From positions 8,746-72,745 of the forward strand of contig CAKOTK010000003.1 in the NCBI GenBank assembly GCA_934120135.1: a stretch of DNA of 64,000 bases, in the 5' to 3' direction. Each line of letters starts with the position of its first letter. The first letter of the stretch is position 1. The position numbers were made by a program, and so were the translations under genes. Of this stretch, positions 9,455 through 54,252 are shown one piece after another. The notes under the pieces were generated by a model, which made no database searches, had not been told where the DNA came from, and saw only the letters and a program-made list of their open reading frames with translations. Source of the stretch: an uncultured Clostridia bacterium (GTDB taxonomy: Bacteria; Bacillota; Clostridia; TANB77; CAG-508).

Positions 9455-9464
9455 GGAGTAACAA

Positions 9465-10580: not shown

Positions 10581-10609
10581 TTGGCTAAATGCTGACAAAT
10601 ATATTATAA

Positions 10610-10823
10610 GGAGAATTCGCATGGTAAATAACGCACGGACAGTAAGAAAAGGAAACTCCAATGTTTGCCTGAAAATTGAGCATTGTATGCTCAGCTGGAA
10701 AGGCGGAAAAAAGTGTTCCAAGAATAAATGCAGAAGTTATACAGACCCAAGGAACTCGAAAAATAAAAAGAAGTGAAATTTTCCGACGAGCAGATCAGAA
10801 GTATGGTCTGTTCGTTTTTTATT
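10610..10823 (+). ncRNA. candidate structured small RNA (class unassigned; 6S-like end-to-end pairing)
   Basis: A GC-enriched ~210-nt segment that is non-coding in a credible sense. Candidate promoter 'ttggct'-17-'ttataa' at 10581-10609 (or 'tgtataat' at 10561). The 5' 'ggagaatt' (10610-17) can pair with 'aattttcc' (10777-84). Internal 7-bp hairpin at 10677-10693. A strong terminator at 10787-10823 precedes the separate promoter of the next gene. Confidence 0.35.
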
Positions 10824-10908
10824 CATAATAACCAGTTGACTAAAATAGATATAAGATATAAAATACTATTGTTAAATTTAAAGAATTTTAGAGAGGAATG
10901 TTGCTAAT

Positions 10909-32453: not shown

Positions 32454-32516
32454 TATGGAAAGATTGAATTACAGAGTTAATCTGTTCAATATATAATAAT
32501 TTTAGGAGGATTTAAA

Positions 32517-33710
32517 ATGAAAGTTTTAGTAGTAAACTGTGGAAGTTCATCAATTAAATATCAATTGATAAACATGGAAAATGAAAGCGTTATGGCAAAA
32601 GGATATTTGGAGAAAATTGGATTACCAGATTCATTTTTAACACATACTGTAAATGGTGAAAAACGCAAAATTGAAGAGCCTATAAATAATCATGAAGAAG
32701 GAATAAAATTAGTTTTAGCTCAATTAACACACCCAGAATATGGCGTAATTAGTAGCTTAGACGAAATTGGAGCTGTTGGACACAGAGTTGTTCACGGTGG
32801 AGAAAAATTCAGTTCTTCTGTTTTAATAGATGATGCTGTTATGGAAGCAATGAAAGAATGTATTCCACTAGCACCTTTACATAATCCAGCTGGAATTACA
32901 GGAATTGAAGCTTGTAAAAAAGTATTACCAAATGTTCCAATGGTTGGAGTATTTGATACAGCTTTCCATCAAACATTACCAGAAAAAGCATATATTTATG
33001 CTATTCCTTATGAATATTATGAGAAATATGGAATAAGAAAATATGGATTCCATGGAACATCTCATAGATTCGTATCAAAAAGAGTAGCTGAAGTTATGAA
33101 TAAACCAATTGAAGATTTAAAAATTATAACATGCCACTTAGGTCAAGGTGCAAGTTTATGTGCTGTTGACGGTGGAAAATCAGTTGATACTTCAATGGGA
33201 TTAACACCTTTAGCAGGAATTCCAATGGGAACAAGATCAGGAGATATTGATCCATCAATAGTAACATTTTTAATGAACAAAGAAAATTTAACACCAGACC
33301 AAATGGATAATATACTAAACAAAAAATCAGGTAAATTAGGAGTTTCAGGAGTTAGCTTTGATGATAGAGATATTGAAAAAGCTATGGCAGAAGGAAACGA
33401 GAGAGCAAAACTTGCAATAGATACATTTGTATATCAAGTAATTGGATACATTGGTAGATTTACTGCTCAAATGAATGGTGTAGACGCTATTACATTTGCT
33501 GGTGGTGTTGGAGAAAACGGAATTGATGTAAGAAAACAAATATGTGAATCACTTTCTTTCTTAGGTGTAAAAATCGACGAAGAGAAAAACAATTGCAGAG
33601 GAAAAGAAGTTGAAATTTCAACACCAGATTCTAAAGTAAAAGTATTTGTTATTCCAACAGACGAAGAATTAACAATAGCAAGAGATACTATGGAAATAGT
33701 AAATAAATAA
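32517..33710 (+). CDS. ackA: acetate kinase, copy 1
   Basis: '[17 protein letters not shown]', 'HRVVHGG' and 'GFHGTSH'. Confidence 0.95.
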
Positions 33711-33728
33711 TTAAAAGAGGAATGAAAA

Positions 33729-34922
33729 ATGAAAGTATTAGTATTAAATTGTGGAAGTTCGTCAATTAAATATCAATTAATTGATATGGAAAATGAAAAT
33801 TTGATGGCAAAAGGATATTTAGAGAAAATTGGGTTACCAGATTCTTTCTTAACACATACTGTAAATGGTGAAAAACATAAAATTGAACAAGTTATAGAAA
33901 ACCATGAAGAAGGAATTAAATTAGTATTATCTCAATTAACACATCCAGAATATGGCGTAATCAAAAGCTTTGACGAAATTGGAGCTATTGGCCATAGATT
34001 AGCTCACGGAGGAGATAAAATTAGTGAGCCAACTTTAATAGACGAAAATGTTATAAATGTATTAAAGGAATTTACACCTTTAGCGCCTCTACATAACCCT
34101 GCTGAAATAGTAGGAGTAGAAGCTTGTAAAAAAGTATTACCAGATGTTCCAATGGTTGGAGTATTTGATACAGCTTTTAATCAAACTATTCCTGAAAAAG
34201 CATATATGTATGCAATTCCATATGAATATTATGAAAAATATGGAATCAGAAAATATGGTTTCCACGGAACATCATATAAATTTGTTTCAAAAAGAGTAGC
34301 TGAAATTATGGATAAACCTTTAGAGGATTTAAAAATCGTTTCATGTCACCTTGGTCAAGGAGCAAGTGTATGTGCAATAAATGGAGGAAAGGCAGTTGAT
34401 AACTCATTAGGATTTACTTCATTAGCAGGTCTTCCTATGGGAACAAGATGTGGAGATATTGATCCATCAATAGTAACATTCTTAATGAAAAAAGAAAACT
34501 TAACTACAGAACAAATGGACAAAATATTAAATAAACAATCTGGTAAACTAGGAATTTCAGGAGTTAGCTTTGATGATAGAGATATTGAAGTCGCTGCAGA
34601 AGAAGGAAATGCAAGAGCAAAACTTGCAATAGATGTTTTTGTATATCAAGTAGTTGGATATATTGGTAGATTTGCTGCTCAAATGAATGGTGTAGATGTT
34701 ATTACATTTGCCGGTGGAATTGGAGAAAATGCAATAGATGTAAGAAAACAAATATGTGAATCACTTTCTTTCTTAGGAATAAAAGTTGACGAAGAGAAAA
34801 ACAATTGCAGAGGAAAAGAGGTTGAAATCTCAACATCTGATTCTAAAGTAAAAGTATTTATAGTTCCAACAAATGAGGAACTAATGATAGCAAGAGACAC
34901 TATGGAAGTAGTTAGTAAATAA
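33729..34922 (+). CDS. ackA: acetate kinase, copy 2 (tandem paralogue, same length)
   Basis: 397 aa and colinear with copy 1 with no indels. Roughly four-fifths of residues are identical by eye. Confidence 0.95.
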   Translation: MKVLVLNCGSSSIKYQLIDMENENLMAKGYLEKIGLPDSFLTHTVNGEKHKIEQVIENHEEGIKLVLSQLTHPEYGVIKSFDEIGAIGHRLAHGGDKISEPTLIDENVINVLKEFTPLAPLHNPAEIVGVEACKKVLPDVPMVGVFDTAFNQTIPEKAYMYAIPYEYYEKYGIRKYGFHGTSYKFVSKRVAEIMDKPLEDLKIVSCHLGQGASVCAINGGKAVDNSLGFTSLAGLPMGTRCGDIDPSIVTFLMKKENLTTEQMDKILNKQSGKLGISGVSFDDRDIEVAAEEGNARAKLAIDVFVYQVVGYIGRFAAQMNGVDVITFAGGIGENAIDVRKQICESLSFLGIKVDEEKNNCRGKEVEISTSDSKVKVFIVPTNEELMIARDTMEVVSK

Positions 34923-35012: not shown

Positions 35013-35987
35013 ATGATAGATTTAAAAGAAAATCCAACATTTTTAAATTCATTTTTAGAATATCTAACAGGTATTTTAAATAAATCAGTTAACACAGTAA
35101 AAGAATATAACTATGATTTAGCTCATTTTCTAAAGTTTATATCTCATCATTTTGGCTTATCTTCTGAAGAAAATATAAAAGAGATAGATATTCATGATAT
35201 GAGTATAGAAACAGTCAAACAAATTAAATTAGAAGATATACATGCATTTTTATATTATTTAACAGAAACATATCACAGTAAAGCTGCCACACGTGCAAGA
35301 AAAGCTGCAAGTATCAGAATGTTTTTTAGTTATCTAACTCAAAAGGCCCATTTATTAGAAATAAATCCTGCACAAGGACTCGAAACACCTAAGCTAGACA
35401 AAAGGCTTCCTAAATATCTAACTTTAGAGCAAAGTAAAGAATTACTAGAAGTTACAAAAGCAGAATCTGGTGATTTTAAAGAAAGAGATTATGCAATAAT
35501 TACTTTATTCTTAAATTGCGGAATGCGTTTATCTGAGCTAGTGAATATAAATATAAAGGATATAAATTTTTACGACAATAAATTAAATGTAGTAGGTAAG
35601 GGAAATAAAGAAAGAACTATTTACTTAAACAAAGCTTGTATTGATTCCATAAACTCATACTTAGCTGTAAGACCACATGATGGCGTAAAATTCGATTCTA
35701 GAGACGCTCTATTCTTAAGCAAAAGAAAAGAACGCATCAGTAACAGAATGGTCCAAGAGATAGTAAAAAGAGAGTTAGCAAAGGCTGGACTAGATATAAG
35801 TAAATACTCTGTTCACAAATTAAGACACACTGCCGCAACCTTAATGTATCAGTATGGTGATGTAGATATTAGAGCTTTGCAAGTGTTATTAGGACATGAA
35901 AGTATATCTACTACTGAAATATATACACATGTAGAAAATAAACAAGTAAAAAATGCTGTTGAAAGCAACCCTTTAGCAAATGAATGA
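35013..35987 (+). CDS. tyrosine site-specific recombinase, XerC/XerD family
   Basis: 'NCGMRLSEL...', 'HKLRHTAATLM...' and 'LLGHESISTTEIYTHV' give the R..HxxR..Y catalytic signature. Confidence 0.85.
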   Translation: MIDLKENPTFLNSFLEYLTGILNKSVNTVKEYNYDLAHFLKFISHHFGLSSEENIKEIDIHDMSIETVKQIKLEDIHAFLYYLTETYHSKAATRARKAASIRMFFSYLTQKAHLLEINPAQGLETPKLDKRLPKYLTLEQSKELLEVTKAESGDFKERDYAIITLFLNCGMRLSELVNINIKDINFYDNKLNVVGKGNKERTIYLNKACIDSINSYLAVRPHDGVKFDSRDALFLSKRKERISNRMVQEIVKRELAKAGLDISKYSVHKLRHTAATLMYQYGDVDIRALQVLLGHESISTTEIYTHVENKQVKNAVESNPLANE

Positions 35988-39154: not shown

Positions 39155-39208
39155 ATAAATGTCCGATTCGTTAGTAACTTTGAAAGCAACTGCTTAAGGA
39201 GGAAAAAA

Positions 39209-41638: not shown

Positions 41639-42476
41639 TTATTTTATCATGTTCGAACAGAAGGCAGTTCACATTTAATGTGAGCTGTCTTTTGCATATA
41701 ATTAATTATATTATAAAGTTTTAGAGCGGGAGAGAGATAGTTTAGAATAATAGTATTCTTTCAGTAGGGAATAGAGGAATAGATTGTTTTTAGAAAGGTA
41801 TAAAAATAGAAATTTAAAATATTAAAATGAATTTTAAAACGGAAAAATAAATATATGAAAAATTTATTCTACTAAAGCAAAAATGAAACTAAAATTTGAA
41901 GTTAAAAATTTTTGTGTAAAATTAAATTTTTAATATATATTTTTATAAGTGAACATTAAATTCTTTGTATAAATATTATATAATTTAAATTCACAAATCC
42001 ATAATATAATTTTATAATTATGATACATTAAAATCCATTTTAAGACACTTTTATATTTAATTAAACAAGTTTAATGTGCAAATTTATAGGTCTAGTGTTT
42101 ATTATATAATTTTCAGTAGTTTTAATACTTTTAAAAAAGTGTTAAAAAAATAACGCTCTAAAATCGATTTTAAGGCGTTTTTATTTTTTAGACAACAAGT
42201 TATATGTCTAAAAAATAGCTTAATATTGAAGATATAAGCAGTAAGCAAATATTTATAAAAAAGTTATACAATTTAGATAAAAATATATAATGACAAAATA
42301 TTTGAAATGAAATTATATGAATAAAAATTCTAAAAGGCTTAGAATCGATTTTAGAAGGTCAAAAATAAGTAAGTAATAGATAAGATTATAAATATAATAA
42401 ATAGAATATAAAACGATTGTATTATAATAATGGAGATAATAGCTAAAAGTAGCAGGAGAGGAGCTGTATTGCATAT

Positions 42477-42519
42477 ATAAGCAAATTTCCCTCCACTCAA
42501 TTGCACAAAACTTTGATTT
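42477..42519. repeat. left copy of prophage-flanking direct repeat (att core candidate)
   Basis: 'ataagcaaatttccctccactcaattgcacaaaactttgattt' differs at 3 positions from 49050-49092. Confidence 0.65.
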
Positions 42520-42739
42520 GGCCTTGTTTTGGTTATATATACAGTTATTGGAAAAAATGGATGTAATAATTGTTATTATTTAATTTTAGTAAAATAAAAA
42601 AGTAACACAAAAATTGATTTTATGTTACTAATGTTCGAATTTAACTCATATATAATTATAAATATAAAAAAATAATAGCTTTTAATGTTATAAAATGGTA
42701 TTAAAGGCTATTATTTTACTCTTGATTACATAATATTGG

Positions 42740-43021
42740 TTATTCTTGGTCGTTTCTTATATCTTCAATCATATTATAAATATCTAGTTTCATTTTCATT
42801 TCTTCTACTTTACATTGTTTGTTAATATAATATAAATATCCAAATAAAATTCCAATTAACGCTGCAATTGCTATTACTTTTATTATATCTGTTTTAAATA
42901 TAAAATGATTTAGTAATATAGATATAACTATTATTAAAACAAATAATCCTACTGTTTTTATTTCTATAATTCCTTCTAGTGTTTTTATCTTATTATAATA
43001 TAATCTTTTATCAAATAACAT
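42740..43021 (-). CDS. small two-TM membrane protein co-transcribed with the repressor
   Basis: 93 aa, lying 12 nt downstream of the XRE gene. Confidence 0.5.
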   Translation of the reverse strand: MLFDKRLYYNKIKTLEGIIEIKTVGLFVLIIVISILLNHFIFKTDIIKVIAIAALIGILFGYLYYINKQCKVEEMKMKLDIYNMIEDIRNDQE

Positions 43022-43033
43022 TTTAAATTCTCC

Positions 43034-43243
43034 TTATTCTTTTGTTTGTATTGCGATTTTTCTTATATGTTCTCCAATTTCTTCATTTGTCATATCTAGT
43101 GCTATTACTATTTTTGCATAGTTGCTTATCTTAGGTGTTACTAAATCGTTTTCTATTCTAAATATTGTTTTTCTATCTATACCAGAAATGTCTGCTAGTT
43201 TTTCTTGTGTTATTTTTTTTCTTTCTCTGTATTCTCTTAACAT
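43034..43243 (-). CDS. XRE-family helix-turn-helix repressor
   Basis: 'LREYRERKKITQEKLADISGIDRKTIFRIEND' is a canonical Cro/C1 HTH. Confidence 0.85.
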   Translation of the reverse strand: MLREYRERKKITQEKLADISGIDRKTIFRIENDLVTPKISNYAKIVIALDMTNEEIGEHIRKIAIQTKE

Positions 43244-43290
43244 TTAACTCACCTTCTTATATATTTTATAAAAATTTTTTTAAAAAGTCA

Positions 43291-43345
43291 TTGACATTTA
43301 TGCCCCATTTTGTTATATTATTGTTGTGAGGCAAATATGCCCCAT
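43291..43345 (+). promoter_or_regulatory. rightward phage promoter with two 'tatgccccat' operator-like repeats
   Basis: 'ttgaca'-17-'tatatt'. The decamer occurs at 43299-43308 (inside the spacer) and at 43336-43345. Confidence 0.5.
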
Positions 43346-43432
43346 AAACTATCCTAAATTATAGTGGTGTCATACGGGGGTTACCGACTTTGCCCCCAAG
43401 TATGCTTTTAAAATTAAAGGAAGGTGTTTTTT

Positions 43433-43654
43433 ATGGAGGATAGATTAGGATTAACAGAAGAGGAAATCGCAGATGTTGTTTACATTTTAAGTAATAGAAA
43501 AGAAGAGTTACTTAATAAAGTGCTATTTTATAATAGTATGATAAAAGACAATTGTGTTAAAAGACTAGATATGTTGACAAATGTTATTACTAGTGTAAAT
43601 GCTGAAATATTAAAAATAGATTTAATTATTATGAAATTAAAAAAATTATTATAA
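43433..43654 (+). CDS. phage hypothetical protein (73 aa)
   Basis: 'ggaaggtg' SD 6 nt upstream of the ATG. Confidence 0.5.
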   Translation: MEDRLGLTEEEIADVVYILSNRKEELLNKVLFYNSMIKDNCVKRLDMLTNVITSVNAEILKIDLIIMKLKKLL

Positions 43655-43671
43655 AGGAAGGTGTAAAAAAT

Positions 43672-43965
43672 ATGAAATGTGAAGGAAATGTAGTATTTAA
43701 AAGTATTGAAAAGAGAGAGGGTGGCAGTTTTAAAAATCCAAATGGAGAAGTGGTGAATTATGAACCAGCTTATGTTGTGAGATTTGACGAAAATGCAGAT
43801 GGAAAAATTAGCGAAAGAAAAGCAAAGTTCGCACATACAAATGTTACTTTATATACTAAATTTAAAACATTAGAGCCATATGCTAAAATTAACTTAATAG
43901 GTAATGTTGTTTTTCAAAACTCTGGCTGCAAATTAGAAATACTTGATTTTAATGTTATTAAATAG
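43672..43965 (+). CDS. phage protein, positional candidate for ssDNA-binding (gene V-like) protein
   Basis: 97 aa and beta-rich, located immediately upstream of the coat-like gene. The function is inferred from position only. Confidence 0.4.
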   Translation: MKCEGNVVFKSIEKREGGSFKNPNGEVVNYEPAYVVRFDENADGKISERKAKFAHTNVTLYTKFKTLEPYAKINLIGNVVFQNSGCKLEILDFNVIK

Positions 43966-44006
43966 AAATATTTAATATAAAAAATACTTAAGAAAGGGGA
44001 ATGGTT

Positions 44007-44207
44007 ATGGAGAATACTGTTTCAAATGCCTTAGATTTTAGTGCTATTAGTACAGCTTTGACAACTGCAGTTACGCCAGCGCAAATAATTACTATTATAG
44101 CAAGTATTATTGGTGTAGGAATGACTTTCGTTCTAATGTGGTTCGGCGTAAGAAAACTTGTTTCTATATTTAGAAAAGCCGTTACTAAAGGTAAAATTTC
44201 TGTTTAA
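44007..44207 (+). CDS. inovirus major coat protein-like (66 aa)
   Basis: Amphipathic N-terminus, TM 'IITIIASIIGVGMTFVLMWFGV' and basic C-terminus 'RKLVSIFRKAVTKGK'. Followed by GC-rich hairpins. Confidence 0.55.
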   Translation: MENTVSNALDFSAISTALTTAVTPAQIITIIASIIGVGMTFVLMWFGVRKLVSIFRKAVTKGKISV

Positions 44208-44366
44208 TTTAATGATTAAAAGTCGGGTGTTGTGGGGGGATTTTATCTCCCTATTTTTATATTAAAAGGGCTAGTAGTTTAAAGTGGTAGAATATCAAGG
44301 TTTAAGTACTGTTGAGAAGATGAGAGTTCAACTCTCTCCTGGTTCTTGTTTTGTATGGGGGATTTT

Positions 44367-44537
44367 ATGGAATTTTGGTTGAATTTTTTAAATTTTGTAA
44401 TTGTAGTTTTATATGGTTTAATGTTTTTTAAGTTGTTAAATGTTTTAGGTGAAAAAAATATATTGAATGATGACGATATACATTGTGTTTCTTCTTTTTC
44501 TTTTGAACATAAACAATATTTGAAGAAAAAAATATAA
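44367..44537 (+). CDS. phage small TM protein (56 aa)
   Basis: 'ggggga' SD 4 nt upstream. Translation begins MEFWLNFLNFVIVVLYGLMFFKLL... Confidence 0.4.
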   Translation: MEFWLNFLNFVIVVLYGLMFFKLLNVLGEKNILNDDDIHCVSSFSFEHKQYLKKKI

Positions 44538-44561
44538 GAAATAACTTGAAAGGGGAATTTT

Positions 44562-44717
44562 ATGTGGAATATGTTAGCTATAATAAAAAGAATTATGAGA
44601 AAATTGATTTACAAGATAAGAAAAATTATAAATGCTTTGAACATTACCTCAGGTGCTGTTCTCAAAACTATAATGATTTTCTTAATAATTATTTTGTTGT
44701 TGAGGGGGGTGTTTTAA
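44562..44717 (+). CDS. phage small TM protein (51 aa), not in the ORF track
   Basis: 'aagggga' SD 5 nt upstream. Hand-translated as MWNMLAIIKRIMRKLIYKIRKIINALNITSGAVLKTIMIFLIIILLLRGVF. Preferred over the overlapping track ORF 44546-44752. Confidence 0.4.
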   Translation: MWNMLAIIKRIMRKLIYKIRKIINALNITSGAVLKTIMIFLIIILLLRGVF

Positions 44718-44720
44718 CAA

Positions 44721-45446
44721 ATGAGTTTAAATTTGTCGATGTTAGAAGGTAGTTTAAATCCTAAAAATATATTTAAAACTATTAAACATAATATTAAATT
44801 TGCAAGAGAGCATCCTGATTATTTTGACCCAGATGGCTTACTTGTTTTTTGTGGTCCTCAGGGCTCTGGAAAAACTTTGTCTGCTGTTCAATATGTTAGA
44901 AAATTGTGTATTGAATATCCTAGAGCTATTCTTTGTACTAATTGTAAGATAAATAATCTCCCAGCACATACTGCAGTTGTACCCTATGACGGTATAGAAA
45001 GTCTCACAAAATATGAAAACGGAGAATTCGGGGTTATCTATTTTATTGACGAGATACATTTAGAATTTAATTCTTTGGAAAGTAAAAATATTCCTATTGA
45101 GGTTATGGTTGAGATTTCGCAACAAAGAAAGCAGAGGAAACATATTGTAGGTACTTCTCAAGTTTATACTAGAATGGCTAAACCTCTAAGAGAACAAATT
45201 AAGAATGTGGTTATTTGTAAAAAATGGCTTAATTGTATTCAATTTAATAGATTAGTTGATGGCGAGAGTTCTCACGAAGTTGATGGAGAACTTAAATTTG
45301 ACACAAGTAAAGTATGTTTATGGTTTCACTCGCCTGAACTTTATAATTGTTATGATACTTATGCAAAAATGAAGAGGTATCGTAAAGAATGGAATGGAGT
45401 TTCAAGACAAAATTTATATGAAGGGGGGAATAGTAATGGATTTTAG
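44721..45446 (+). CDS. Zot / pI-like inovirus assembly ATPase
   Basis: Walker A 'FCGPQGSGKTLSA' and Walker B 'IYFIDEIH'. Confidence 0.75.
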   Translation: MSLNLSMLEGSLNPKNIFKTIKHNIKFAREHPDYFDPDGLLVFCGPQGSGKTLSAVQYVRKLCIEYPRAILCTNCKINNLPAHTAVVPYDGIESLTKYENGEFGVIYFIDEIHLEFNSLESKNIPIEVMVEISQQRKQRKHIVGTSQVYTRMAKPLREQIKNVVICKKWLNCIQFNRLVDGESSHEVDGELKFDTSKVCLWFHSPELYNCYDTYAKMKRYRKEWNGVSRQNLYEGGNSNGF

Positions 45447-45570
45447 TACAGTTATACCACTTGCCGCAGATGTTTTAAAGGCTGCTTTGCCTTTAGGTAT
45501 AGTTTTTGTTTTAACTGAGCGACTTACTCAAATGTTTTTAAATTTAGCTTTCCCAAAAAGTAATAAGTAG
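45436..45570 (+). CDS. phage small TM protein (44 aa), not in the ORF track
   Basis: 'aagggggga' SD. Hand-translated as MDFSTVIPLAADVLKAALPLGIVFVLTERLTQMFLNLAFPKSNK. Confidence 0.4.
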   Translation: MDFSTVIPLAADVLKAALPLGIVFVLTERLTQMFLNLAFPKSNK

Positions 45571-45581
45571 GGGGAATTATT

Positions 45582-45737
45582 ATGGATTATAGTGTTGTTT
45601 TAAATGAAATAAATAATAATCAAGCTTTAATTTTAGAAAAGCTTATTAATATTGATAAAGGAATTGCAGTTGTTGTTTTTTTACTGGGGGTTTCTCTTAT
45701 TTATATTTTTGCTGGAAATCTTACAAAGGTTAAATAG
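45582..45737 (+). CDS. phage small TM protein (51 aa), not in the ORF track
   Basis: 'ggggga' SD. Hand-translated as MDYSVVLNEINNNQALILEKLINIDKGIAVVVFLLGVSLIYIFAGNLTKVK. Confidence 0.4.
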   Translation: MDYSVVLNEINNNQALILEKLINIDKGIAVVVFLLGVSLIYIFAGNLTKVK

Positions 45738-45746
45738 GTGTAATTT

Positions 45747-47246
45747 ATGAAAAATAAAATTTTATTAAGTTTATTATTTGTTGTGTTTTTTATTTTATTA
45801 ATAAGTGTTTTTGATACAGTGAGTGCTAGTAGTAGTACTTTTGATTATAATGGTAAAACTTATGAATATCCTACTAATTATTTTTTTGATTATAGTGTTA
45901 TTGTTTATTGGTATACTGATAATAATGGTAATTGTGTTTTTTTGGCTTTTTCTTCTAATAAAGCTTTTTATTGTAAGAATGTTGATGTTGTTGGAGAAAA
46001 TATTTTGCATGTTCCACCTGATACGTCTTTTAATAAGATGTATTTAATATATGATAATGAAAATACAGATGTTTCTTCTCCTTCGGTTACTGTTTATAAT
46101 AGATCTTCAGGAGATAGTGAGGTTTATCTTAGCACTGATATTGCTCTTTTTGGTGCATTGCGTGTTAAGTCGTTAGAGGAAAGGTGTGTATATTGTAGTC
46201 ACGATATTTGTAATGTTGATGGGTCTGTTTTATTCAGTAGTACGGTTGAGGTTGTTGATTTAAATCTTACTGTTACGCCAGATTATGATACGAAGGATGT
46301 GCCTATTAAGATTAGTACTGATTTTTATAGTCTAAAGGTTTTTGAAGATATTTTGGTTCAATATAGTACTAATCAACAAGATTGGGAAACTTGTAAGTGG
46401 GGTAGAATTACAGATGGTAATAGTTCTAATAATGGAAAATATAATTTTTATTTAGATGTGTATCGTAATGGAACTTATTATTTTCGTCTTTGGAATGCTG
46501 CAGATAATACATATATATATAAAACTGTTGTTATTAGTAATATTGTTTATAGTCCAGACGATGTCAATAACTATGTAAATGGTGTTTTTGATCCAACGCC
46601 TTTTTTAACTTATGAATATATAAATGATAATAAAATAAATATAATAACTCAAAAATTTTTTATTGACCAAATCATTGATTTGCAATGTTTTTACGCAAAA
46701 GATATAAGCAAAGAAGATTATAATAAAAAAGAAAAATGGACTAAAGTAGAGGCTAGAACTATGATTGACCAGCTTACTCAAAGAGATGTATATCAGTTTT
46801 GTTTTGAGGTAGATAATAATACTTTTGATGCCGATGGTACTTATACGGTTTGCTTTTGGAATGTGTTTCTTGATAAATATACTTATAGCGAGATAGTCAT
46901 AGATTTCGACGAAATTTTGAAAGTTGATGGTTCTATGATTTGGAAATATGTTCATTTTTTTAAGGAACGTTTTGGCTTTTTAATATATCCATTTGACTTA
47001 ACTGTAAATACTCTTAAGAGAATAGCAGCAATAAATTATGGCGAACCAAAATTTAATATTCCAGATATTTATGAGCCTACAACAAATAAAAAATTAATAT
47101 CTGCAGTTACTTTTAATTTTAATGACTATTTAGAAAATAATACTTTTAAGACAGTTCATAATACTTATTTAATTATAGTAGACGCGGTAATTATTTTTGC
47201 TCTTTTAAATTTAGCTTGGAAGAAGATTTCGGGGGTGTTTAAATAA
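45747..47246 (+). CDS. pIII-like secreted minor coat / adsorption protein candidate
   Basis: Signal peptide 'LLSLLFVVFFILLISVFDTVSA' and a C-terminal TM anchor 'IIVDAVIIFALLNLAW'. It is the largest phage ORF. Confidence 0.5.
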   Translation: MKNKILLSLLFVVFFILLISVFDTVSASSSTFDYNGKTYEYPTNYFFDYSVIVYWYTDNNGNCVFLAFSSNKAFYCKNVDVVGENILHVPPDTSFNKMYLIYDNENTDVSSPSVTVYNRSSGDSEVYLSTDIALFGALRVKSLEERCVYCSHDICNVDGSVLFSSTVEVVDLNLTVTPDYDTKDVPIKISTDFYSLKVFEDILVQYSTNQQDWETCKWGRITDGNSSNNGKYNFYLDVYRNGTYYFRLWNAADNTYIYKTVVISNIVYSPDDVNNYVNGVFDPTPFLTYEYINDNKINIITQKFFIDQIIDLQCFYAKDISKEDYNKKEKWTKVEARTMIDQLTQRDVYQFCFEVDNNTFDADGTYTVCFWNVFLDKYTYSEIVIDFDEILKVDGSMIWKYVHFFKERFGFLIYPFDLTVNTLKRIAAINYGEPKFNIPDIYEPTTNKKLISAVTFNFNDYLENNTFKTVHNTYLIIVDAVIIFALLNLAWKKISGVFK

Positions 47247-47551
47247 TGGGTGGTAGAGAAGGGATAGATTGGTTTAGTGGTTTTTTTGATAATATAAGCG
47301 AAGGGTTATATAAAATAATACAATTTGCGTTTGGCTGGATTAACATTCCTCAAATGCCAACTGAGATTACAAATTCGATAGATAGTTTTTTAAATTTAAT
47401 TTTTGATAATTTAAGTTTATTAGGTTTTTTTGTTAGACCAATGACTTTGAAAATAGTAATACCTGTTTTGATAATACTTTTGAATTTTGATTTAATTTAT
47501 AAAATTGTGATGTGGCTGGTACATAAAATTCCATTTTTTAATATTAAATAG
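47246..47551 (+). CDS. phage membrane protein (pVI-like position)
   Basis: 101 aa and hydrophobic, with start/stop overlap with the upstream gene. Confidence 0.5.
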   Translation: MGGREGIDWFSGFFDNISEGLYKIIQFAFGWINIPQMPTEITNSIDSFLNLIFDNLSLLGFFVRPMTLKIVIPVLIILLNFDLIYKIVMWLVHKIPFFNIK

Positions 47552-47559
47552 TATTATTT

Positions 47560-47850
47560 GTTAGTGAATAGTTCTTACAGCGCTAGCTCTGTTATGCGGG
47601 GGTTGCCTATTTTCCGTTCAGGAAAATAGGCAAGAGGGGGATAGTCCCCCTAAAGAATAGCCGAACGGCGCTTGAGTGGGAAAAAAGAAAAAAGTAAAAA
47701 TCCCGCTCTATCTAACAAGCGGGATTTTTGGTCATATTTGGCCATTATTTTTACTCGAAAAATTAAGGAAACGGCTGTTGCTCTAAGGTAAAAGTCGGGT
47801 TTACCGGTAAAATTGAGCTAATTTCCAATTTTTAGTAAAAATTTAAAGCC
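47560..47850 (+). other. phage intergenic region rich in GC hairpins (candidate origin / packaging signal)
   Basis: Perfect 13-bp hairpin 'ttgcctattttcc gttca ggaaaataggcaa', then 'ggggg atagt ccccc', then the 12-bp 'aaaaatcccgct...agcgggattttt'. Confidence 0.5.
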
Positions 47851-47862
47851 GGAGTGATAAAA

Positions 47863-48777
47863 ATGGACATTGAAAATTTGTATAATGAGAAAAAACAAGA
47901 ACATAATAATATGACTTATAGTATTGATATGCTTAGACTGAAAACTTATATATCATATAGCAAATTTAGTCAACTTGAATTTAGATTTAAGACTTGCTGG
48001 AAGGATTTTGTTAAAAAGGAATTTTGTTCTTCTAAGATAAGCAACTTTTTTTATAACTATGTTATAACTGACGAAGCAGACAATAGTTTTTGGGTAGGCT
48101 TTTTACATAATACGGAGAAAAGACAAGGGGAAGTTATTTCTAGATTTGGAAGAGTAGTGGAGGACACTTATAATTTAACAATAGAATTTAATCCTAATAA
48201 ACTAAAGAAAAATGACATAATATTTTATATTTTATCTCTAGGTGAGGATTGGTATATAAAGTCATTTGATTTAGCAATAGATTTAAAGATAAGTATATTA
48301 GATTTAATATGGGACTTATCTGGAAGGTCGCTCGAGAAAATAGACAATAGGGGTTATGACAAGAAAACTATTTATATAGGCAAAGGCGACGGGAGAATTA
48401 AAATATATAACAAAAAACAAGAAAGTTCGCTTAATATAGTGGGAGAATTAACAAGAATAGAAATCAGTAGAGAATTAGAAGATTTTGAAGTTAGAAGAAT
48501 TAAGTATTATGAGTATGATAACATCTTCCCTACTATTTATACTAATAATTATATATACAGCTTAGGCGACTACAAAGATAAAACACTTTTAGGACTGTTA
48601 TATGCTGTACAGAATGGTTTTCCGTTAAGAGATTTAACAAAAACTTATAGAGCTAAAATAAAAAAGCTTCTGCAAGGTGGCTATAAAATAAAATTTGATA
48701 ATAATACAGTAACTCATTTATTAAAACAAATAATTTTTTATTATTTTGTTGGTTTTAGTAATATTCATTGGTGTTGA
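47863..48777 (+). CDS. rolling-circle replication initiator, Rep_trans family
   Basis: 'RGYDKKTIYIGKGDGRIKIYNKKQE...LTRIEISRE' matches the YDK / RxE pattern of Rep_trans proteins. Confidence 0.75.
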   Translation: MDIENLYNEKKQEHNNMTYSIDMLRLKTYISYSKFSQLEFRFKTCWKDFVKKEFCSSKISNFFYNYVITDEADNSFWVGFLHNTEKRQGEVISRFGRVVEDTYNLTIEFNPNKLKKNDIIFYILSLGEDWYIKSFDLAIDLKISILDLIWDLSGRSLEKIDNRGYDKKTIYIGKGDGRIKIYNKKQESSLNIVGELTRIEISRELEDFEVRRIKYYEYDNIFPTIYTNNYIYSLGDYKDKTLLGLLYAVQNGFPLRDLTKTYRAKIKKLLQGGYKIKFDNNTVTHLLKQIIFYYFVGFSNIHWC

Positions 48778-49049
48778 TAAAAAACAAAGCAAATAAATCG
48801 ATTTTAAGACGTTTTTATATTTTAGATAACAAGTTATATGTCTATAAATATAATATAATATCTAAAATATAATTATAAAGTAAATATTCATAAAAAATAT
48901 ATTAACTGTATAATAAAATAATATTGGGAATAAAATTATATGAACAAATTATAAAAATGTCTTAAAATTGATTTTATGAGTTTAAAAAGATGTAATATAT
49001 GTAACGACTAAAATGTAGGAGAGGATATTTGTAACAATACATAAGCAAA

Positions 49050-49092
49050 TTTGCCTCTACTCAATTGCGCAAAACTTTGATTTTGTGCAATT
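49050..49092. repeat. right copy of prophage-flanking direct repeat
   Basis: 'ataagcaaatttgcctctactcaattgcgcaaaactttgattt'. Here it continues into the hairpin 'ttgcgcaaaa...ttttgtgcaa', downstream of rho. Confidence 0.65.
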
Positions 49093-49155: not shown

Positions 49156-50508
49156 TTATTTTGCATTTTTTAAAAAATATGCCATTTTATCTAAAAATTC
49201 ATTATTATTTTTTGTTGCAACCATTTGTGTAATTAATTCTTCAGTAACATCTGCAACAGACATTGTTGACATTGCCTTTCTTAATGCAAATACTGTTTCT
49301 AATTCTTTTGGAGTTAATAATAGTTCTTCTCTTCTTGTTCCAGATTTGTTTATATCAATTGCTGGGAAAATTCTCTTTTCTGATAATTTTCTATCTAAGT
49401 GAACCTCCATATTACCAGTACCTTTAAATTCCTCAAATATAACATCGTCCATTCTACTTCCTGTTTCTATTAATGCAGTAGCTAAAATCGTTAAGCTCCC
49501 CCCATTTTCTATATTTCTAGCTGCTCCAAAGAATTTTTTTGGTTTATGTAATGCACTTGGATCTAAACCACCAGATAATGTTCTTCCTGAAGATGGTATA
49601 GATAAGTTGTATGCTCTTGCTAAACGAGTGATACTATCTAATAGTATTACTACATCTTTCTTTTGCTCTGTTAATCTTTTAGCTCTTTCTAGTACCATTT
49701 CTGCTACCTTAACATGATGTTCAGGTAACTCATCAAAAGTAGAATATATAACATCTCCTTTAATGCTACGTCTCATGTCTGTAACTTCTTCCGGACGCTC
49801 ATCTATTAAAAGCACTATCAACTCTATTTCTGGATTATTTGTTGTAATGCTGTTTGCTATTTTCTTTAATAATGTAGTTTTTCCAACTTTAGGTGGAGCA
49901 ACTATCATTCCTCTTTGACCTTTTCCAATTGGTGACATTAAGTCAATAATTCTCATTGCATATTCATTTGGAACTGTTTCTAATCTGATTCTTTCGTCTG
50001 GATAAATAGGGGTCAAATCATCAAATTTTTGCCTTCTATATGCTTTTTCTGGAGATTCTCCATTAACTTCACCAACATAAATTAGTGCTGGAAATTTTTC
50101 TCCCTCTTTTGGTAATCTAGCTATTCCTTTTACTTTGTCACCTTTATCTAATTTGAATCTTCTAATTTGTATAGGAGATATATATACATCTTTTGGAGTT
50201 GATAAATAATTTTCTCCTCTTAAAAATCCATATCCATCTGGTAATACTTCTAATATTCCTTCAACAATTTGATCATCTGCATTTGTCAATTTATATGATC
50301 CGTTTGAAGGCTCAGCAAGAGTGCTTGTAGTTACATCTGTTGCGACGTAGCTTCCATCATATTCAATTTCTTCTGATTCAGTTGGTTCATTGTCTAATTT
50401 TAATAGTTCTTCTATGATTTCTTCTTTTTTTAGCTTTGAAGTGTTTTTTATTCCTTTTTCTTTTGCAAGTTGACGCAATTCAACTAGTGTATAATTTTCT
50501 AAATCCAT
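49156..50508 (-). CDS. rho: transcription termination factor Rho
   Basis: 'LPDGYGFLR', '[20 protein letters not shown]' and '[25 protein letters not shown]'. Confidence 0.97.
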
Positions 50509-52872: not shown

Positions 52873-54252
52873 ATGAAAAAGTTTTTAAAAAATGCAATAG
52901 TGTTCTTTATTGCACTTATTATGTTTGTATTGTTGTCAAATACAACTAAAGCAGTGGAGGTAACTGATGCGAAGAAAAGTAAAATATTAGAATTTCTAGA
53001 AGCTAATAACATACTTTCTTATTACAACTATGACAAGGTTGAAAATATTTATATCACAAATGAATTATTACATGAAATCGGTGGAAACCCTGTAACCGAA
53101 GAACAACGTAAAAATGCTGAAATATATGAAATGGTTAATGATATGAAAGAAGGCTTTGTAATTACAAGAGATTCTATAAACAATTATTTGCAGAATACCA
53201 TTGGGCTAACCGTGGATAAATTAAAAAATTACGACCAATTCTTGAATCAAACAACAACATCTGATAACAAAAACCAATTTTACTATTTTACAATAACCAG
53301 TCCAGCAGATTATAGTGATTATGCAATAACTAAAGTAGAAGAAACATCTGCTTCTACAATTAAAGTTACTATAACAGCAAAAATGAACAAAGAAGAATTC
53401 TCAAATGTAATAGAATTAGTTAAAAAAGGTGACTCGTATAATTTTGTATCATCTACAAGTGCAGATGGAAAAAGTAGACCACTTACTGTTGGCTCAGACT
53501 ATCAATTTAATGATAAGAAATCTAACACTTCAGATACAAATAAAATACTAGAATTTATAAAGGCTAATAAAGTACTTTCTTATTACAATTACGATAAAGT
53601 TGAAAACATTTATATCACACGTGCATTGTTGTGTGAAGTTGGTGGAAGTCCGGTAAGTGAAGAACAACGTAAAAATACTGGTATATATGAAATGATTGGA
53701 GATTTAAAAGAAGGTTTTGTAACTACAAAAGATGCGGTAAATCAATATTTACAAAACACACTTGGTATAACAGTGGATAAATTAAAAAATTATGAACAAT
53801 TCTTAAATCAAACAACAACATCTGATAACAAAAACCAATTTTACTATTTTACAATAACAGGACCAACAAACTATAGTGATTATGCAATAACTAAAGTGGA
53901 AGAAACATCTGCTTCTACAATTAAAGTTACTATAACAGCAAAAATGAACGAAGAAGAATTTTCAAATGTAATAGAATTAGTAAAAAAAGGCGACTCATAT
54001 AATTTTGTATCATCTACAAGTGCAGATGGAAAAAACAGATCACTTGTTGTAGGTTCAGAAAATGAATTTAATAATAAAACAACAAAAACTATAAATCCTA
54101 CAGATAAAACAGATAAAGACAACATCACTGCAGACACTAAAATTCCACAAACAGGAATTACAAAAAATATAATAATTATTTCAATACTTAGTGTATTAGG
54201 AATTATAATAATTATATCATTAGTTAAATACAATAAAAGCAAAAATGATTAA
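52873..54252 (+). CDS. sortase-anchored surface protein with a 187-aa internal tandem duplication
   Basis: Signal peptide. Two repeats with a 561-nt period (52981 vs 53542). C-terminal 'IPQTG' followed by a hydrophobic segment and a KSKND tail. Confidence 0.7.
   Translation: MKKFLKNAIVFFIALIMFVLLSNTTKAVEVTDAKKSKILEFLEANNILSYYNYDKVENIYITNELLHEIGGNPVTEEQRKNAEIYEMVNDMKEGFVITRDSINNYLQNTIGLTVDKLKNYDQFLNQTTTSDNKNQFYYFTITSPADYSDYAITKVEETSASTIKVTITAKMNKEEFSNVIELVKKGDSYNFVSSTSADGKSRPLTVGSDYQFNDKKSNTSDTNKILEFIKANKVLSYYNYDKVENIYITRALLCEVGGSPVSEEQRKNTGIYEMIGDLKEGFVTTKDAVNQYLQNTLGITVDKLKNYEQFLNQTTTSDNKNQFYYFTITGPTNYSDYAITKVEETSASTIKVTITAKMNEEEFSNVIELVKKGDSYNFVSSTSADGKNRSLVVGSENEFNNKTTKTINPTDKTDKDNITADTKIPQTGITKNIIIISILSVLGIIIIISLVKYNKSKND

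Follow-up and report, generated by a model that had tools for sequence, protein, structure and literature searches.

A filamentous prophage without an integrase gene in a gut Clostridia bacterium, and a palindromic Xer-type site as its probable target

How does a phage that encodes no recombinase enter a bacterial chromosome? The question is posed by a 64,000-nucleotide stretch of DNA from an uncultured Clostridia bacterium (hereafter the window), in which a 6,564-bp prophage with 13 tightly spaced genes occupies positions 42499 to 49092. Judged by its sequence, this block is a temperate filamentous phage (inovirus) integrated in its host's chromosome. The host, an uncultured low-GC member of the Clostridia from the human gut, is closest among genome records to a Hadza MAG (CAKPNJ01) and to Clostridium sp. 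CAG:567. An earlier note, drawn from the letters of the DNA, had placed an inovirus-like prophage here, just downstream of rho in a spore-former, and had named host Xer or phage Rep as possible routes of integration. The placement is correct (the lineage has the sporulation genes YabP and YabQ), and the evidence favours Xer over Rep. The phage is best read as another member of a known inovirus type, with a variant integration system.

A compact inovirus genome

The genes extend from 42740 to 48777: 11 on the plus strand, and two, divergent, on the minus strand. The tight packing described earlier stands. All 13 ORFs are intact, with strong GGAGG or GGGGG ribosome-binding sites (RBS). Ten longer ORFs, all of more than 56 aa, gave no match to capsid, terminase, tail, lysin or recombinase families in Pfam and PHROG, as the earlier note had it. 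The phage has no recombinase gene of its own.

The minus-strand pair comprises a 93-aa membrane protein with an RBS and two hydrophobic segments, in a variable cargo slot (42740..43021), and a 69-aa XRE/Cro-CI-type repressor (43034..43243; Pfam HTH_3, 7e-12; PHROG transcriptional repressor), divergent from the structural operon as previously noted. The best promoter-like site toward that operon (43291..43319, plus strand; TTGACA-17-TATATT with TG) matches 11 of 12 consensus positions, and is identified by consensus match only. All remaining features are on the plus strand. The rightward operon opens with a 73-aa helical protein (43433..43654; RBS AAGGAAGGTG), with 91% conservation in L021, a circular variant. 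Because the 97-aa protein that follows (43672..43965, with an RBS) has no family match in Pfam or PHROG, it is proposed as a gV-like ssDNA-binding candidate from its position only, directly 5' of the coat gene.

The 66-aa protein (44007..44207) bears out its assignment as major coat protein: it matches phrog_2186 (virion structural protein, 4e-5), has a transmembrane (TM) core and a basic C-terminus, and shares 62% identity with a protein of coat size (67 aa) in bajarodino virus 41. Directly 3' of its gene lie a terminator-like hairpin with a T-run (44232..44254) and then a conserved tRNA-like element (44268..44346; 36.1 bits against the Rfam tRNA gathering score of 29). This element is kept in L014, L017, L021 and L022 (36.6-40.9 bits); ARAGORN detects it under relaxed settings only.

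Two small genes were, as predicted, missed by the source annotation: a 56-aa single-TM protein (44367..44537; RBS GGGGGA), and a 51-aa protein with a C-terminal TM segment (44562..44717; RBS AAAGGGGAA), 96% conserved in L021. Next comes the pI/Zot-like morphogenesis ATPase (44721..45446), of 241 aa and without a TM segment. The sequence contains recognisable Walker A (GPQGSGKT) and Walker B (IYFIDEIH) motifs and matches PHROG 197 ("Zot-like", 6e-8). In tblastn, 19 circular Inoviridae records have Zot/ATPase genes with 50-68% identity to it. The earlier Zot/pI-like reading is thereby supported; against Pfam Zot itself the protein scores 16.2 bits, under the gathering score of 20.3. A 44-aa single-TM protein (45436..45570) overlaps the pI stop codon, is 47.5% identical to the ORF 3' of Zot in L001, and is possibly a membrane partner of pI. 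Another 51-aa single-TM protein, with an RBS, is a minor coat candidate (45582..45737). Hydropathy agrees with the single-TM reading of all four small proteins (56, 51, 44 and 51 aa).

The 499-aa candidate pIII-like adsorption protein (45747..47246) shows the predicted N-terminal signal-like segment and C-terminal TM segment (hydrophobic residues 1-31 and 469-498); its C-terminus is 37% identical to the large ORF of L001. A clade-conserved 101-aa membrane protein (47246..47551; identity 51% in L001, 34% in L124, 26% in L002) is a pVI-like candidate. The hairpin-rich intergenic region noted earlier is real, although 311 bp long (47552..47862) rather than 290 bp. It contains three strong hairpins, has a predicted ssDNA minimum free energy of -53.4 kcal/mol, where shuffled sequences give -31.4 kcal/mol (z = -5.8), and is a candidate origin and packaging signal.

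The last gene (47863..48777) encodes a 304-aa predicted rolling-circle replication initiator. The earlier Rep_trans claim holds for the fold and fails for the profile: there was no Rep_trans match in Pfam, NCBIfam or PDB sequences, whereas the AlphaFold (AF2) model (pLDDT 87, pTM 0.85) matched RepDE (4cwe/4cwc; E 2.8e-10 for 4cwe) and RepSTK1 (4cij) in Foldseek, as well as Inoviridae Rep models in BFVD. The pT181-family Rep proteins (RepD/RepDE and RepSTK1; PF02486) thus share its fold (Foldseek TM 0.55-0.62), with only 12-19% identity and no PF02486 match on the phage side. Residue Y182 is invariant, within the motif G-R-x-K-I-Y-N-K-K; the wider R-x-K-I-Y-N-K-K-x-E motif with its invariant tyrosine is presumably similar to the active-site region of RepC/RepD. 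Of the 713 homologs in the family, the 120 listed are all without a Pfam domain and without a name given by the source.

The inovirus identification therefore stands on several supports: homology of pI, the coat, the 44-aa protein, the 499-aa C-terminus and the 101-aa protein to circular Inoviridae virome genomes; the Rep_trans-fold initiator; and a sister variant present as circular contigs of 5.76 kb.

The prophage boundaries

The host site core is a 30-bp palindrome with two 12-bp arms and a 6-bp spacer, AATTGCACAAAA-TCAAAG-TTTTGTGCAATT. At the Rep end of the prophage, attR (49063..49092) reads AATTGCGCAAAA CTTTGA TTTTGTGCAATT: a regenerated full 12-6-12 site, the sole palindrome match within the 64-kb window (none expected by chance), and one found also in empty-site strains. 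At the other end, attL (42499..42528) reads as a hybrid, AATTGCACAAAA CTTTGA TTTGGCCTTGTT, made up of host arm, spacer and degenerate phage arm.

Outside attL, on the xer side, lies the host copy (S, 42145..42498, 354 bp) of a long diverged repeat; it differs by one mismatch in 354 bp from the empty-site strain L008. The phage-borne copy (P, 48779..49062, 284 bp) is 81% identical to S over aligned bases, and may be host sequence captured through aberrant excision. Despite some 300 bp of homology alongside, the crossover is limited to CAAAACTTTGATTT, 14 bp across the spacer (42506-42519, identical to 49070-49083); this mapping presumes a pre-integration host with the "A" allele, as in L008, while some strains (L009, L115) have "G".

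The earlier note had bounded the block with a 43-bp imperfect direct repeat 6573 bp apart. The repeat exists, but it is 47 bp long, its copies are 91% identical, and they lie 6564 bp apart. Nor is it a plain direct repeat: it is the best-conserved edge of the longer one, and the attachment site is an Xer-type palindrome at the terminus.

Empty sites, circles and relatives

Metagenome contigs with an identical Rho protein carry either the prophage or a single complete palindrome at an unoccupied site; the empty site with a single core copy that the earlier note proposed to look for in related strains is thus found. Near-identical copies of the prophage (99.98-99.99%) occur in independent samples.

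A sister phage, variant B, encodes a pI protein identical to that of the window's phage, variant A. Two Logan contigs of variant B have 30-nt terminal overlaps and close into circles of about 5.76 kb, in which attP (AATTGCACAAAA TCAAAG TTGTGTAATTTA) separates the Rep stop codon from the left end of the phage. Variant B also occurs as prophages, in the orientation opposite to variant A, as predicted from its inverted spacer. It lacks the P region, and its cargo slot holds a DUF2726 gene where variant A has the 93-aa membrane protein. The two meet in L020, a tail-to-tail A/B double lysogen with one full site in the middle. For variant A itself, no circular form or attP junction was found in IMG/VR, JGI metagenomes or exact-protein look-ups.

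Rep-homolog prophages lie directly 3' of rho in two further Rho-defined species as well. In L143-L145 the element has a degenerate junction at one end and a full site at the other; L143 contains elements in tandem array, and the element of L144 is 2.9 kb long and carries Rep only. In L147 and L148 the degenerate junction was found and the full site was not. Farther afield, the L124 prophage (pI 47% identical) abuts a full site beside xer; the IMG/VR contig L140 (pI 63% identical) has a half-site that resembles attP and shares its TCAAAG spacer; and L046 and L058 contain XRE-bearing mini-elements, with no evident Rep gene and with boundaries of the same type.

The palindrome, the xer gene and the terminus

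The proposed integrase is a host Xer-family tyrosine recombinase of 324 aa, encoded at 35013..35987 on the plus strand. It matches NCBIfam XerC (234 bits), XerD, XerA and XerS, each under the curated cut-off; its best PDB sequence matches are XerD (1a0p, 3e-36) and XerA (5hxy).

The palindrome (12-N6-12) was found at 110 loci in GTDB genomes, mostly Clostridia, where we estimate that chance would give fewer than one. In about 67 (67-68) of the 110, an Xer ortholog (45-70% identity) lies directly 3' of the palindrome, at a median distance of 74 nt and within 150 nt in 46/67. Within the window's own lineage xer is not adjacent to the site, lying 2-13 kb off and convergent with it, so the linkage of gene and site is drawn from other species.

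GC skew is greater left of the site than right of it in 51 of 60 loci (p = 3e-8). When 35 loci are oriented by xer, 30 show positive skew on the upstream side, and only 4 show it past xer. The coding strands follow the skew in converging at the palindrome, and the window's own cumulative GC skew reaches its maximum at about 49 kb; rho (49156..50508, minus strand; Pfam Rho_N, Rho_RNA_bind, ATP-synt_ab) is the nearest gene on the negative-skew side. Convergence of skew and gene orientation is what is expected of a replication terminus. The palindrome thus appears to be the chromosome's dif.

A different role is conceivable. The palindrome shares bases with a TTGACA-17-TATAAT promoter in many species, with the -10 box on the left arm and the xer RBS after the right arm, so its main role may be that of an operator. 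An Xer-like enzyme would then recombine a site that serves as xer operator and landing pad for mobile elements, the true dif lying elsewhere. The recombinase falls under every curated XerC/D/A/S cut-off, and a 64-kb window leaves room for a conventional XerCD/Bacillus-type dif in the rest of the genome. Yet the site marks the convergence of GC skew and coding strands in dozens of species and in the window, and in single-recombinase XerS/XerH systems dif is normally linked to the recombinase gene. We give this account a small but real chance. The site also stands beside xer in genomes with no phage gene found inside the 8-kb locus. No description of such a palindromic site or dif-Xer-like module was found in the literature that could be searched.

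How the phage may integrate

The explanation that best fits these observations, and one we consider likely, is that of an IMEX-type Gram-positive inovirus that integrates via host Xer at the terminus palindrome. The phage would replicate as a rolling circle from the hairpin-rich intergenic origin with its Rep_trans-fold initiator, assemble and cross the membrane with its short pI/Zot-like ATPase and small membrane proteins, and maintain lysogeny through the divergent XRE repressor. Its attP would consist of one consensus arm and the 6-bp spacer of the host site, with a degenerate second arm. The host Xer (35013-35987), which presumably catalyses integration, would exchange strands inside the spacer, regenerating the full site at the Rep end and leaving a crippled hybrid at the other. 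The sense of the spacer would set the orientation of insertion; variants A and B carry opposite senses and sit in opposite orientations. The regenerated site would be open to further elements, and this would explain how tandem arrays, satellites and double lysogens arise elsewhere.

Is the phage still active? The block might be cryptic, a fixed remnant unable to excise or to form particles, given that no variant A circle was found and that the degenerate attL arm may render integration irreversible, as for CTX-phi. Against this stand the 13 intact ORFs with their ribosome-binding sites; presence or absence that differs between strains of identical Rho; the 99.98-99.99% identical copies from independent samples; and the circles of the sister variant. 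Moreover, the similarity between variants drops out over 45828-46254, the N-terminal third of the adsorption protein, as expected under host-range selection. Fixation is accordingly improbable, and virions are presumably made.

Could homologous recombination have done the work of Xer? A RecA-type exchange through the P/S homology of about 300 bp has in its favour the 284 bp of variant A, 81% identical to host S and right beside the junction. However, the exchange falls in 14 bp at the extreme edge of that homology, within the palindrome spacer, and the entire host S copy is intact. The P-less variant B uses the same site in the orientation that its spacer predicts, and unrelated small elements and phages of other species have half-site junctions at the same site. 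This makes RecA a very unlikely agent. That the phage Rep nicks and joins the phage genome into the chromosome is scarcely credible: Rep is the phage's sole DNA-breaking enzyme, and some rolling-circle elements do integrate by means of their own Rep, but the junctions are reciprocal exchanges inside a two-arm palindrome with a 6-bp spacer (the signature of a tyrosine recombinase), the L046 and L058 mini-elements are bounded alike without an evident Rep gene, and the site is conserved beside xer where the 8-kb locus shows no phage gene.

Comparison with known systems

Close relatives are bajarodino virus 41 (PQ006142) and porcine "Inovirus sp." genomes, with identities of 68% (pI), 62% (coat), 51% (101-aa protein), 47.5% (44-aa protein) and 37% (499-aa C-terminus). 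In bajarodino virus 41 the homologs of coat, pI and the 44-, 499- and 101-aa proteins follow the same order. These genomes differ in having no XRE or cargo module and an unrelated replication gene at the sequence level, Rep giving no tblastn match; PQ006142 has no half-site within two mismatches of the consensus arm.

With the IMEX phages of Vibrio (CTX-phi, VGJ-phi, TLC-phi and the RS1 satellite), the phage shares the lack of an integrase; an attP that mimics the host Xer target with a good arm, a centre and an imperfect arm; and integration at the terminus with a usable site regenerated, tandem arrays and Rep-only satellites (PMC5357621). It differs in its host, a Gram-positive-type Clostridia bacterium; in its target, whose sequence, a perfect 12-6-12 palindrome, bears no relation to that of the 28-bp XerCD dif; and in having two variants with opposite spacer senses and opposite orientations. 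That the two arms are identical points to one recombinase acting alone, not to a XerC/XerD pair.

Single-recombinase systems offer a second parallel. Linkage of the recombinase gene to its own site, the norm for XerS and XerH according to PMC5357621 and the abstracts of PMC2731167 and PMC3325230, recurs here, as does a site at or near the terminus, known for XerS/difSL, XerH/difH and XerL/dif (PMC9765430, PMC5357621). The Legionella XerL/dif system was likewise exposed by a mobile element with a dif mimic, LME-1 (PMC9765430). The predicted recombinase here nonetheless falls under the XerS, XerA, XerC and XerD curated cut-offs and is far nearer XerD and XerA than XerH by sequence; its site is different in sequence, fully palindromic, and overlaps the xer promoter.

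Finally, known inoviruses of Gram-positive hosts (Enterocloster prophages; Clostridium and Propionibacterium phages) have the same general plan: about 6.5-8.5 kb, a pI gene, direct-repeat flanks and a home in gut Clostridia. Secretion has been demonstrated for the Enterocloster prophages (PMC10061712), in a paper whose main text contains neither "integrase" nor "Xer". Compared by description, the element here is smaller, and its 241-aa pI has no TM segment. Its attachment site can be assigned to an Xer-type palindrome.

The prophage and its genes

The prophage (42499–49092) forms a 6,564-bp unit, variant A, whose size fits the Inoviridae/Tubulavirales (4–12 kb). It carries 13 ORFs in 42740–48777, 11 on the plus strand and two divergent on the minus strand, each preceded by a GGAGG/GGGGG-type ribosome-binding site, which bears out the compact same-strand gene block described in the earlier note. 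The expectation that standard annotation would miss genes holds for two, a 56-aa ORF (44367–44537) and a 51-aa ORF (44562–44717); the source caller found 11 of the 13. A human-gut metagenome contig (L003; ena:ERZ27287014:k141_53740) is 100% identical to positions 39156–60508 of the window, whose GC content is about 28%.

Several features first noticed in the sequence were confirmed: a divergent XRE repressor (43034–43243, minus strand; Pfam HTH_3, 7e-12); a 66-aa major coat protein (44007–44207), with a match to phrog_2186 'virion structural protein' (4e-5), a hydrophobic transmembrane core, and a basic carboxyl terminus; four small single-transmembrane proteins of 56, 51, 44, and 51 aa; a 499-aa protein (p499) with both a signal-like amino-terminal segment and a carboxyl-terminal anchor; and a hairpin-rich intergenic region (47552–47862, 311 bp). 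The latter contains three long hairpins, and its predicted ssDNA fold is −53.4 kcal/mol versus −31.4 for shuffled sequence (z = −5.8). A terminator-like hairpin (44232–44254) directly follows the coat gene.

The Zot-like ATPase pI (44721–45446) contains Walker A (GPQGSGKT) and Walker B (IYFIDEIH) motifs. Its assignment stands by PHROG 197 'Zot-like' (6e-8) but not by Pfam Zot, for which it scores 16.2 bits against a gathering score of 20.3. In tblastn, 19 circular genomes ('bajarodino virus' and porcine 'Inovirus sp.') have Zot/ATPase genes with 50–68% identity to pI, and these Inoviridae records are the only phage records matched. One of them, bajarodino virus 41 (a 5,427-bp circle), carries homologs in the same order as the prophage: coat, 62% identity; pI, 68%; p44, 47.5%; the p499 carboxyl terminus, 37%; and p101, 51%.

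Pfam and PHROG scans of the ten longer ORFs (all above 56 aa) matched no capsid, terminase, tail, or lysis gene, as the earlier note had it, and no integrase, recombinase, or transposase family. The gene content is that of an inovirus, and predicts a filamentous ssDNA virion released without lysis. Thousands of Gram-positive gut inoviruses have been predicted (PMC6813254), and secretion has already been documented for such phages (PMC10061712). The phage itself adds another member to this known group.

The replication initiator is a more subtle case. No PF02486 match was found at E ≤ 0.1 (RepD-like_N alone appeared, E = 0.076); searches of NCBIfam, PDB sequences, and PDB profiles gave no match; and neither did tblastn against 50,697 phage records. 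Homologs number 713, and none of the 120 listed has a Pfam domain or a source-given name. An AlphaFold2 model built from 40 homologs (pLDDT 87, pTM 0.85) nevertheless found its top PDB matches by Foldseek in staphylococcal RepDE (4cwe, 2.8e-10; 4cwc, 1e-9; TM 0.55–0.62), along with Geobacillus RepSTK1 (4cij, 9e-7), at probability 1.00 for all three; Inoviridae Rep models in a viral structure library also were matched. Residue Y182 is invariant across the 40 homologs, within G-R-x-K-I-Y-N-K-K-x-E, which we take to resemble the RepC/RepD active-site motif. Sequence and profile searches found nothing, and the fold was identified only through structure prediction and Foldseek. Thus, the earlier assignment as a Rep_trans-type initiator fails by HMM and succeeds by fold: the modeled protein folds like Rep_trans, yet the Pfam criterion places it outside the family.

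A conserved tRNA-like element lies just past the coat-gene terminator (44268–44346, plus strand), and recurs in loci L014 (9497–9575), L017 (6615–6693), L021 (1710–1788), and L022 (2357–2435), all of the sister phage described below. It scores 36–41 bits against the Rfam tRNA model (gathering score 29), with a perfect T-arm, an acceptor stem whose pairing persists across G-U to A-U changes, and an abnormal 19-nt anticodon arm (13 nt in the model). Default ARAGORN calls no tRNA here, so we do not term the element a bona fide tRNA; under relaxed settings the call is tRNA-Ile(tat) with a 2-nt 'intron'. The element may be a degenerate tRNA or serve as an RNA-processing signal.

Attachment sites

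Look-up of the exact Rho protein retrieved contigs from other samples with the same flanks. The prophage is absent from L004, L005, L006, L008, L009, and L012, providing the empty site that the earlier note had sought in related genomes. That note's 43-bp repeat at a spacing of 6573 bp requires correction: the repeat is 47 bp, with 91% identity and a spacing of 6,564 bp. Moreover, a longer diverged repeat, S (42145–42498) and P (48779–49062), with 81% identity over aligned bases, contains it as its best-conserved end. The left copy, S, is host DNA (one mismatch in 354 with empty-site strain L008), and the right copy, P, is phage-borne.

A perfect palindrome of 30 bp marks the exact point at which the homology between S and P stops; in the rho orientation it reads AATTGCACAAAA-TCAAAG-TTTTGTGCAATT. 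The right junction, attR (49063–49092, plus strand), is AATTGCGCAAAA CTTTGA TTTTGTGCAATT, the sole match in the window where none is expected by chance. The left junction, attL (42499–42528, plus strand), is AATTGCACAAAA CTTTGA TTTGGCCTTGTT, in which the spacer separates the host arm from a degenerate phage arm. An identical 14-bp sequence, CAAAACTTTGATTT, occurs at 42506–42519 and 49070–49083 and spans the spacer; comparison of attL, attR, and attB places the exchange within it. Two identical arms, a 6-bp spacer, and crossover in the spacer: this, read from the aligned junctions, is the architecture of a tyrosine-recombinase core site.

The predicted variant A attP joins 48779–49083 to 42520 onward, with core AATTGCGCAAAACTTTGATTTGGCCTTGTT, and the predicted attB joins 42145–42519 to 49084 onward. 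Exact-pattern scans of IMG/VR and JGI metagenomes found no match to the predicted attP/attL core, and exact-protein look-up of the variant A-specific 93-aa gene (p93) returned integrated or partial contigs only.

Both repeat copies contain several direct and inverted copies of an TTAAAATCGATTTTAAG-centred palindrome (42015–42355 around S; 48795–48976 in P), flanked by GC clamps and T-runs (repeat families D1, I2, and I9). These probably are bidirectional terminators. Another reading, in which the 47-bp repeat is the 5′ end of a type I toxin or small hydrophobic ORF (42351–42506, minus strand), was dropped, since the palindrome and its conservation next to xer account for the repeat.

A conserved palindrome upstream of xer

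We scanned one genome per GTDB species for the pattern AATTGCRCAAAA-N6-TTTTGYGCAATT, and found it at 110 loci, one site each, against a chance expectation of less than one in 596 Gb by our own estimate. Nearly all are in Clostridia: Oscillospiraceae, Acutalibacteraceae, Ruminococcaceae, Eubacterium/Clostridium CAG bins, and others. The spacers are AT-rich and differ between species. A 1.64-Mb contig, ERZ27273322:contig_3057, bears the CATTGCACAAAA arm variant.

A xer ortholog, encoding a protein 45–70% identical to the window Xer (324 aa; 35013–35987), is immediately downstream of the site in 67 loci, at a median distance of 74 nt (46 of the 67 within 150 nt). The site is upstream of xer in every one of these, never on its 3′ side. 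In the window lineage the two have been split, and xer is convergent with the site at a distance of 2.2 kb in L009 and about 13 kb in the window. In L074, L046, L114, L081, L083, L124, and others, the −10 box of a TTGACA-17-TATAAT promoter extends into the start of the palindrome (taTAATTGCAC), with the xer ribosome-binding site after the right arm. The recombination site, by this overlap, probably doubles as the xer promoter/operator.

Cumulative GC skew in the window climbs to about 49 kb and falls thereafter, and gene orientation converges there too. Across loci, skew to the left of the site exceeds that to the right in 51 of 60 (p = 3e-8). When loci are aligned by the direction of xer, 30 of 35 have positive skew upstream but only 4 of 35 have it beyond xer, and coding strands converge at the site as the skew does. 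Skew and strand convergence thereby support a terminus position for the site.

Elsewhere in the window, two tandem acetate kinase paralogs (32495–34922; about 84% identical in DNA) lie beside xer. The 459-aa ORF that separates the RF-1 and aspartokinase-like genes is strain-specific, and contains a tandem direct duplication of about 570 bp with 84% identity (52977–54109); other strains have an unrelated 285-aa gene there.

A sister phage in the opposite orientation

A second phage, variant B, encodes the exact pI protein of the window phage. It lacks the P region, and a DUF2726 gene occupies the position of the variant A 93-aa gene. The two ends of each of two variant B contigs from Logan (L021, 5,800 bp; L022, 5,788 bp) overlap by 30 nt, which marks these contigs as circles of about 5.76 kb. 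In both, attP reads AATTGCACAAAA TCAAAG TTGTGTAATTTA and lies past the Rep stop, ahead of the phage left end. When read along the phage genes, the variant B spacer is the reverse complement of the variant A spacer. With respect to rho, the variant B prophages (L014 and L016–L018) are inserted in the orientation opposite to that of variant A, and the regenerated full site is again at the Rep end. L020 is a double lysogen, with variants A and B tail-to-tail around one full site.

Two routes other than site-specific exchange in the spacer were weighed. Homologous recombination would act through the P/S repeat, which variant A has and variant B does without; it is disfavoured. So is Rep-mediated integration, which the earlier note had named beside host Xer. 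Integration in a tRNA gene or beside an integrase was dropped, as neither is present.

Strains with variant B have a PP2C-like gene in place of the rho terminator region (L014, 6480–8246; L017, 2739–5365), beginning 30 bp past the rho stop; L017 adds a NERD-domain gene. DUF2726 sits in the cargo slot of the phage, and defence-like genes gather around the site.

Other elements at the site

Long contigs from two other Rho-defined species carry Rep-homolog prophages directly downstream of YabP-YabQ-DivIC-Rho. One prophage (L145) has a full site at one end and a degenerate junction, CATTGCACAAAA TCAAAG TTGTGTAAAAAG, at the other. A tandem array (L143) consists of a 2.9-kb Rep-only element (8098–11033) and then a full phage, and the 2.9-kb element stands alone in L144 (8146–11033). 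Its entire content is an HTH_26 regulator, a 95-aa ORF, the Rep homolog, and a 40-aa ORF. In L146 (6512–7284), two full sites (CATTGCACAAAA TCAAAG TTTTGTGCAATA) lie 743 bp apart around a single 101-aa gene, and a Xer-like gene is about 0.6 kb beyond. In L147 and L148, the only boundary found is a degenerate junction, AATTGCGCAAAA TGTAAG TTGCGTAATATA.

There are further examples. An inovirus with 47% pI identity (L124, UMGS214) abuts a full site next to xer, and an IMG/VR contig with 63% pI identity (L140) has a half-site with the same TCAAAG spacer. Elements of 1.7–2.4 kb (L046, 36–1710; L058, 3666–6073) lie between a half-site and a full site beside xer. Here the half-site comprises the good arm, the same spacer, and a degenerate arm, and the cargo is XRE-type regulators and small ORFs. 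Directly beside the site, each has an ORF of about 76 aa; the two are weakly homologous (E = 9e-6), and might encode a recombination accessory factor. We rejected the idea that ORFs of about 75 aa beside the site encode one shared Xer-activation factor: only those of L046 and L058 are weakly related, and the window p73 and the L124 78-aa ORF are not.

The full palindrome is missing from one strain with the identical Rho protein (L007, 4937–8080), which has a different element, with two adjacent Phage_integrase genes, downstream of rho. Its sequence ceases to match the other strains within the right arm of the site.

A model for integration

Comparison of attL, attR, and attB, along with the variant B attP from circular contigs, reveals that attP mimics the host Xer target. 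The aligned sequences contain a reciprocal junction in a Xer-type spacer, an empty site, a circular variant B attP, and a regenerated site with arrays and satellites (L143, L144, and L020). We infer that integration is by host Xer, and that the site plays the role of dif. Host Xer would bind both arms, and strands of attP would be exchanged with those of the chromosomal site inside the spacer.

The degenerate phage arm would leave a crippled hybrid site. This arm recurs as TTGYGTAA, the consensus arm shifted by 2 nt. By analogy with some Vibrio IMEXs (integrase-less elements that use host Xer), the crippled site may slow or block excision. Host-like DNA flanks the good arm of each variant: the 284-bp S-like region (variant A) or about 40 bp of the rho side (variant B). 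Most simply, P would have been captured as host DNA when the phage excised aberrantly from an earlier host; the order S-attL-phage-Rep in a circle would reproduce the variant A layout exactly. Finally, the phage end in L124 places a promoter-like TTGACT-17-TATAAT before the regenerated site, with xer directly following. A phage-end promoter could keep xer expressed where the gene directly follows the site.

With the corrections described, the earlier interpretation is supported overall. Its larger setting is as follows. We lean, by a modest margin over even, toward the view that the 12-6-12 sequence AATTGCRCAAAA-N6-TTTTGYGCAATT and the adjacent xer form a single-recombinase dif/Xer system of uncultured gut Clostridia (Oscillospiraceae, Acutalibacteraceae, Ruminococcaceae, CAG-type lineages, and others); that the site also is the xer promoter/operator; that it is parasitised by integrase-less inoviruses, Rep-only satellites, and XRE mini-elements, a guild that would give Gram-positive-type bacteria their first described IMEXs; and that flipping the attP spacer switches the orientation of insertion. 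The whole case rests on comparative sequence evidence.

Significance and relation to known Xer systems

How do integrase-less inoviruses enter and exit the chromosomes of Gram-positive gut bacteria? Xer is not mentioned in the main text of the global inovirus survey, and neither integrase nor Xer in the main text of the Enterocloster inovirus paper (PMC10061712). This locus gives a testable answer, with exact attB, attL, attR, and attP sites, a specific enzyme as candidate, and natural variants from which orientation can be predicted. Were Xer not involved, the phage would be merely one more of many predicted Gram-positive inoviruses. The interest lies in the integration system, that is, an IMEX-type inovirus in Clostridia with orientation variants, satellites, and arrays, at a site that is a hotspot of phages, satellites, and defence-like cargo (DUF2726, NERD, and PP2C-like genes).

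Across a large group of uncultured gut Clostridia, the palindrome also provides a candidate terminus site, with its Xer; such a site helps in finishing genomes, analysing replichores, and building tools for site-specific integration. An earlier dif survey modeled Firmicutes on Bacillus dif, and failed for two Clostridium genomes. The searchable literature yielded no description of the palindromic site or of a clostridial single-Xer system, and searches for the arm sequences, clostridial single-Xer/dif, and Gram-positive IMEXs returned nothing relevant. The conserved xer-linked palindromic terminus site apparently is undescribed.

The window Xer has its best PDB sequence matches in XerD and XerA (XerH only 2e-17), but scores below every curated cut-off: XerA, 205.6 vs. 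220; XerS, 160 vs. 267; XerC, 234 vs. 335; and XerD, 213 vs. 330. It therefore lies outside the XerS and XerA equivalogs. The arrangement, with a terminal site linked to the recombinase gene, is that of the single-recombinase systems XerS/difSL and XerH/difH. A mobile element that exposes a dif site has precedent in Legionella XerL/LME-1 (PMC9765430). The two-site layout of L146 resembles dif-module cassettes, and the 2.9-kb Rep-only element resembles the RS1 satellite of CTX-phi. Half-sites, site regeneration, arrays, and satellites, the hallmarks of the IMEX elements CTX-phi, RS1, and TLC-phi, are all seen here.
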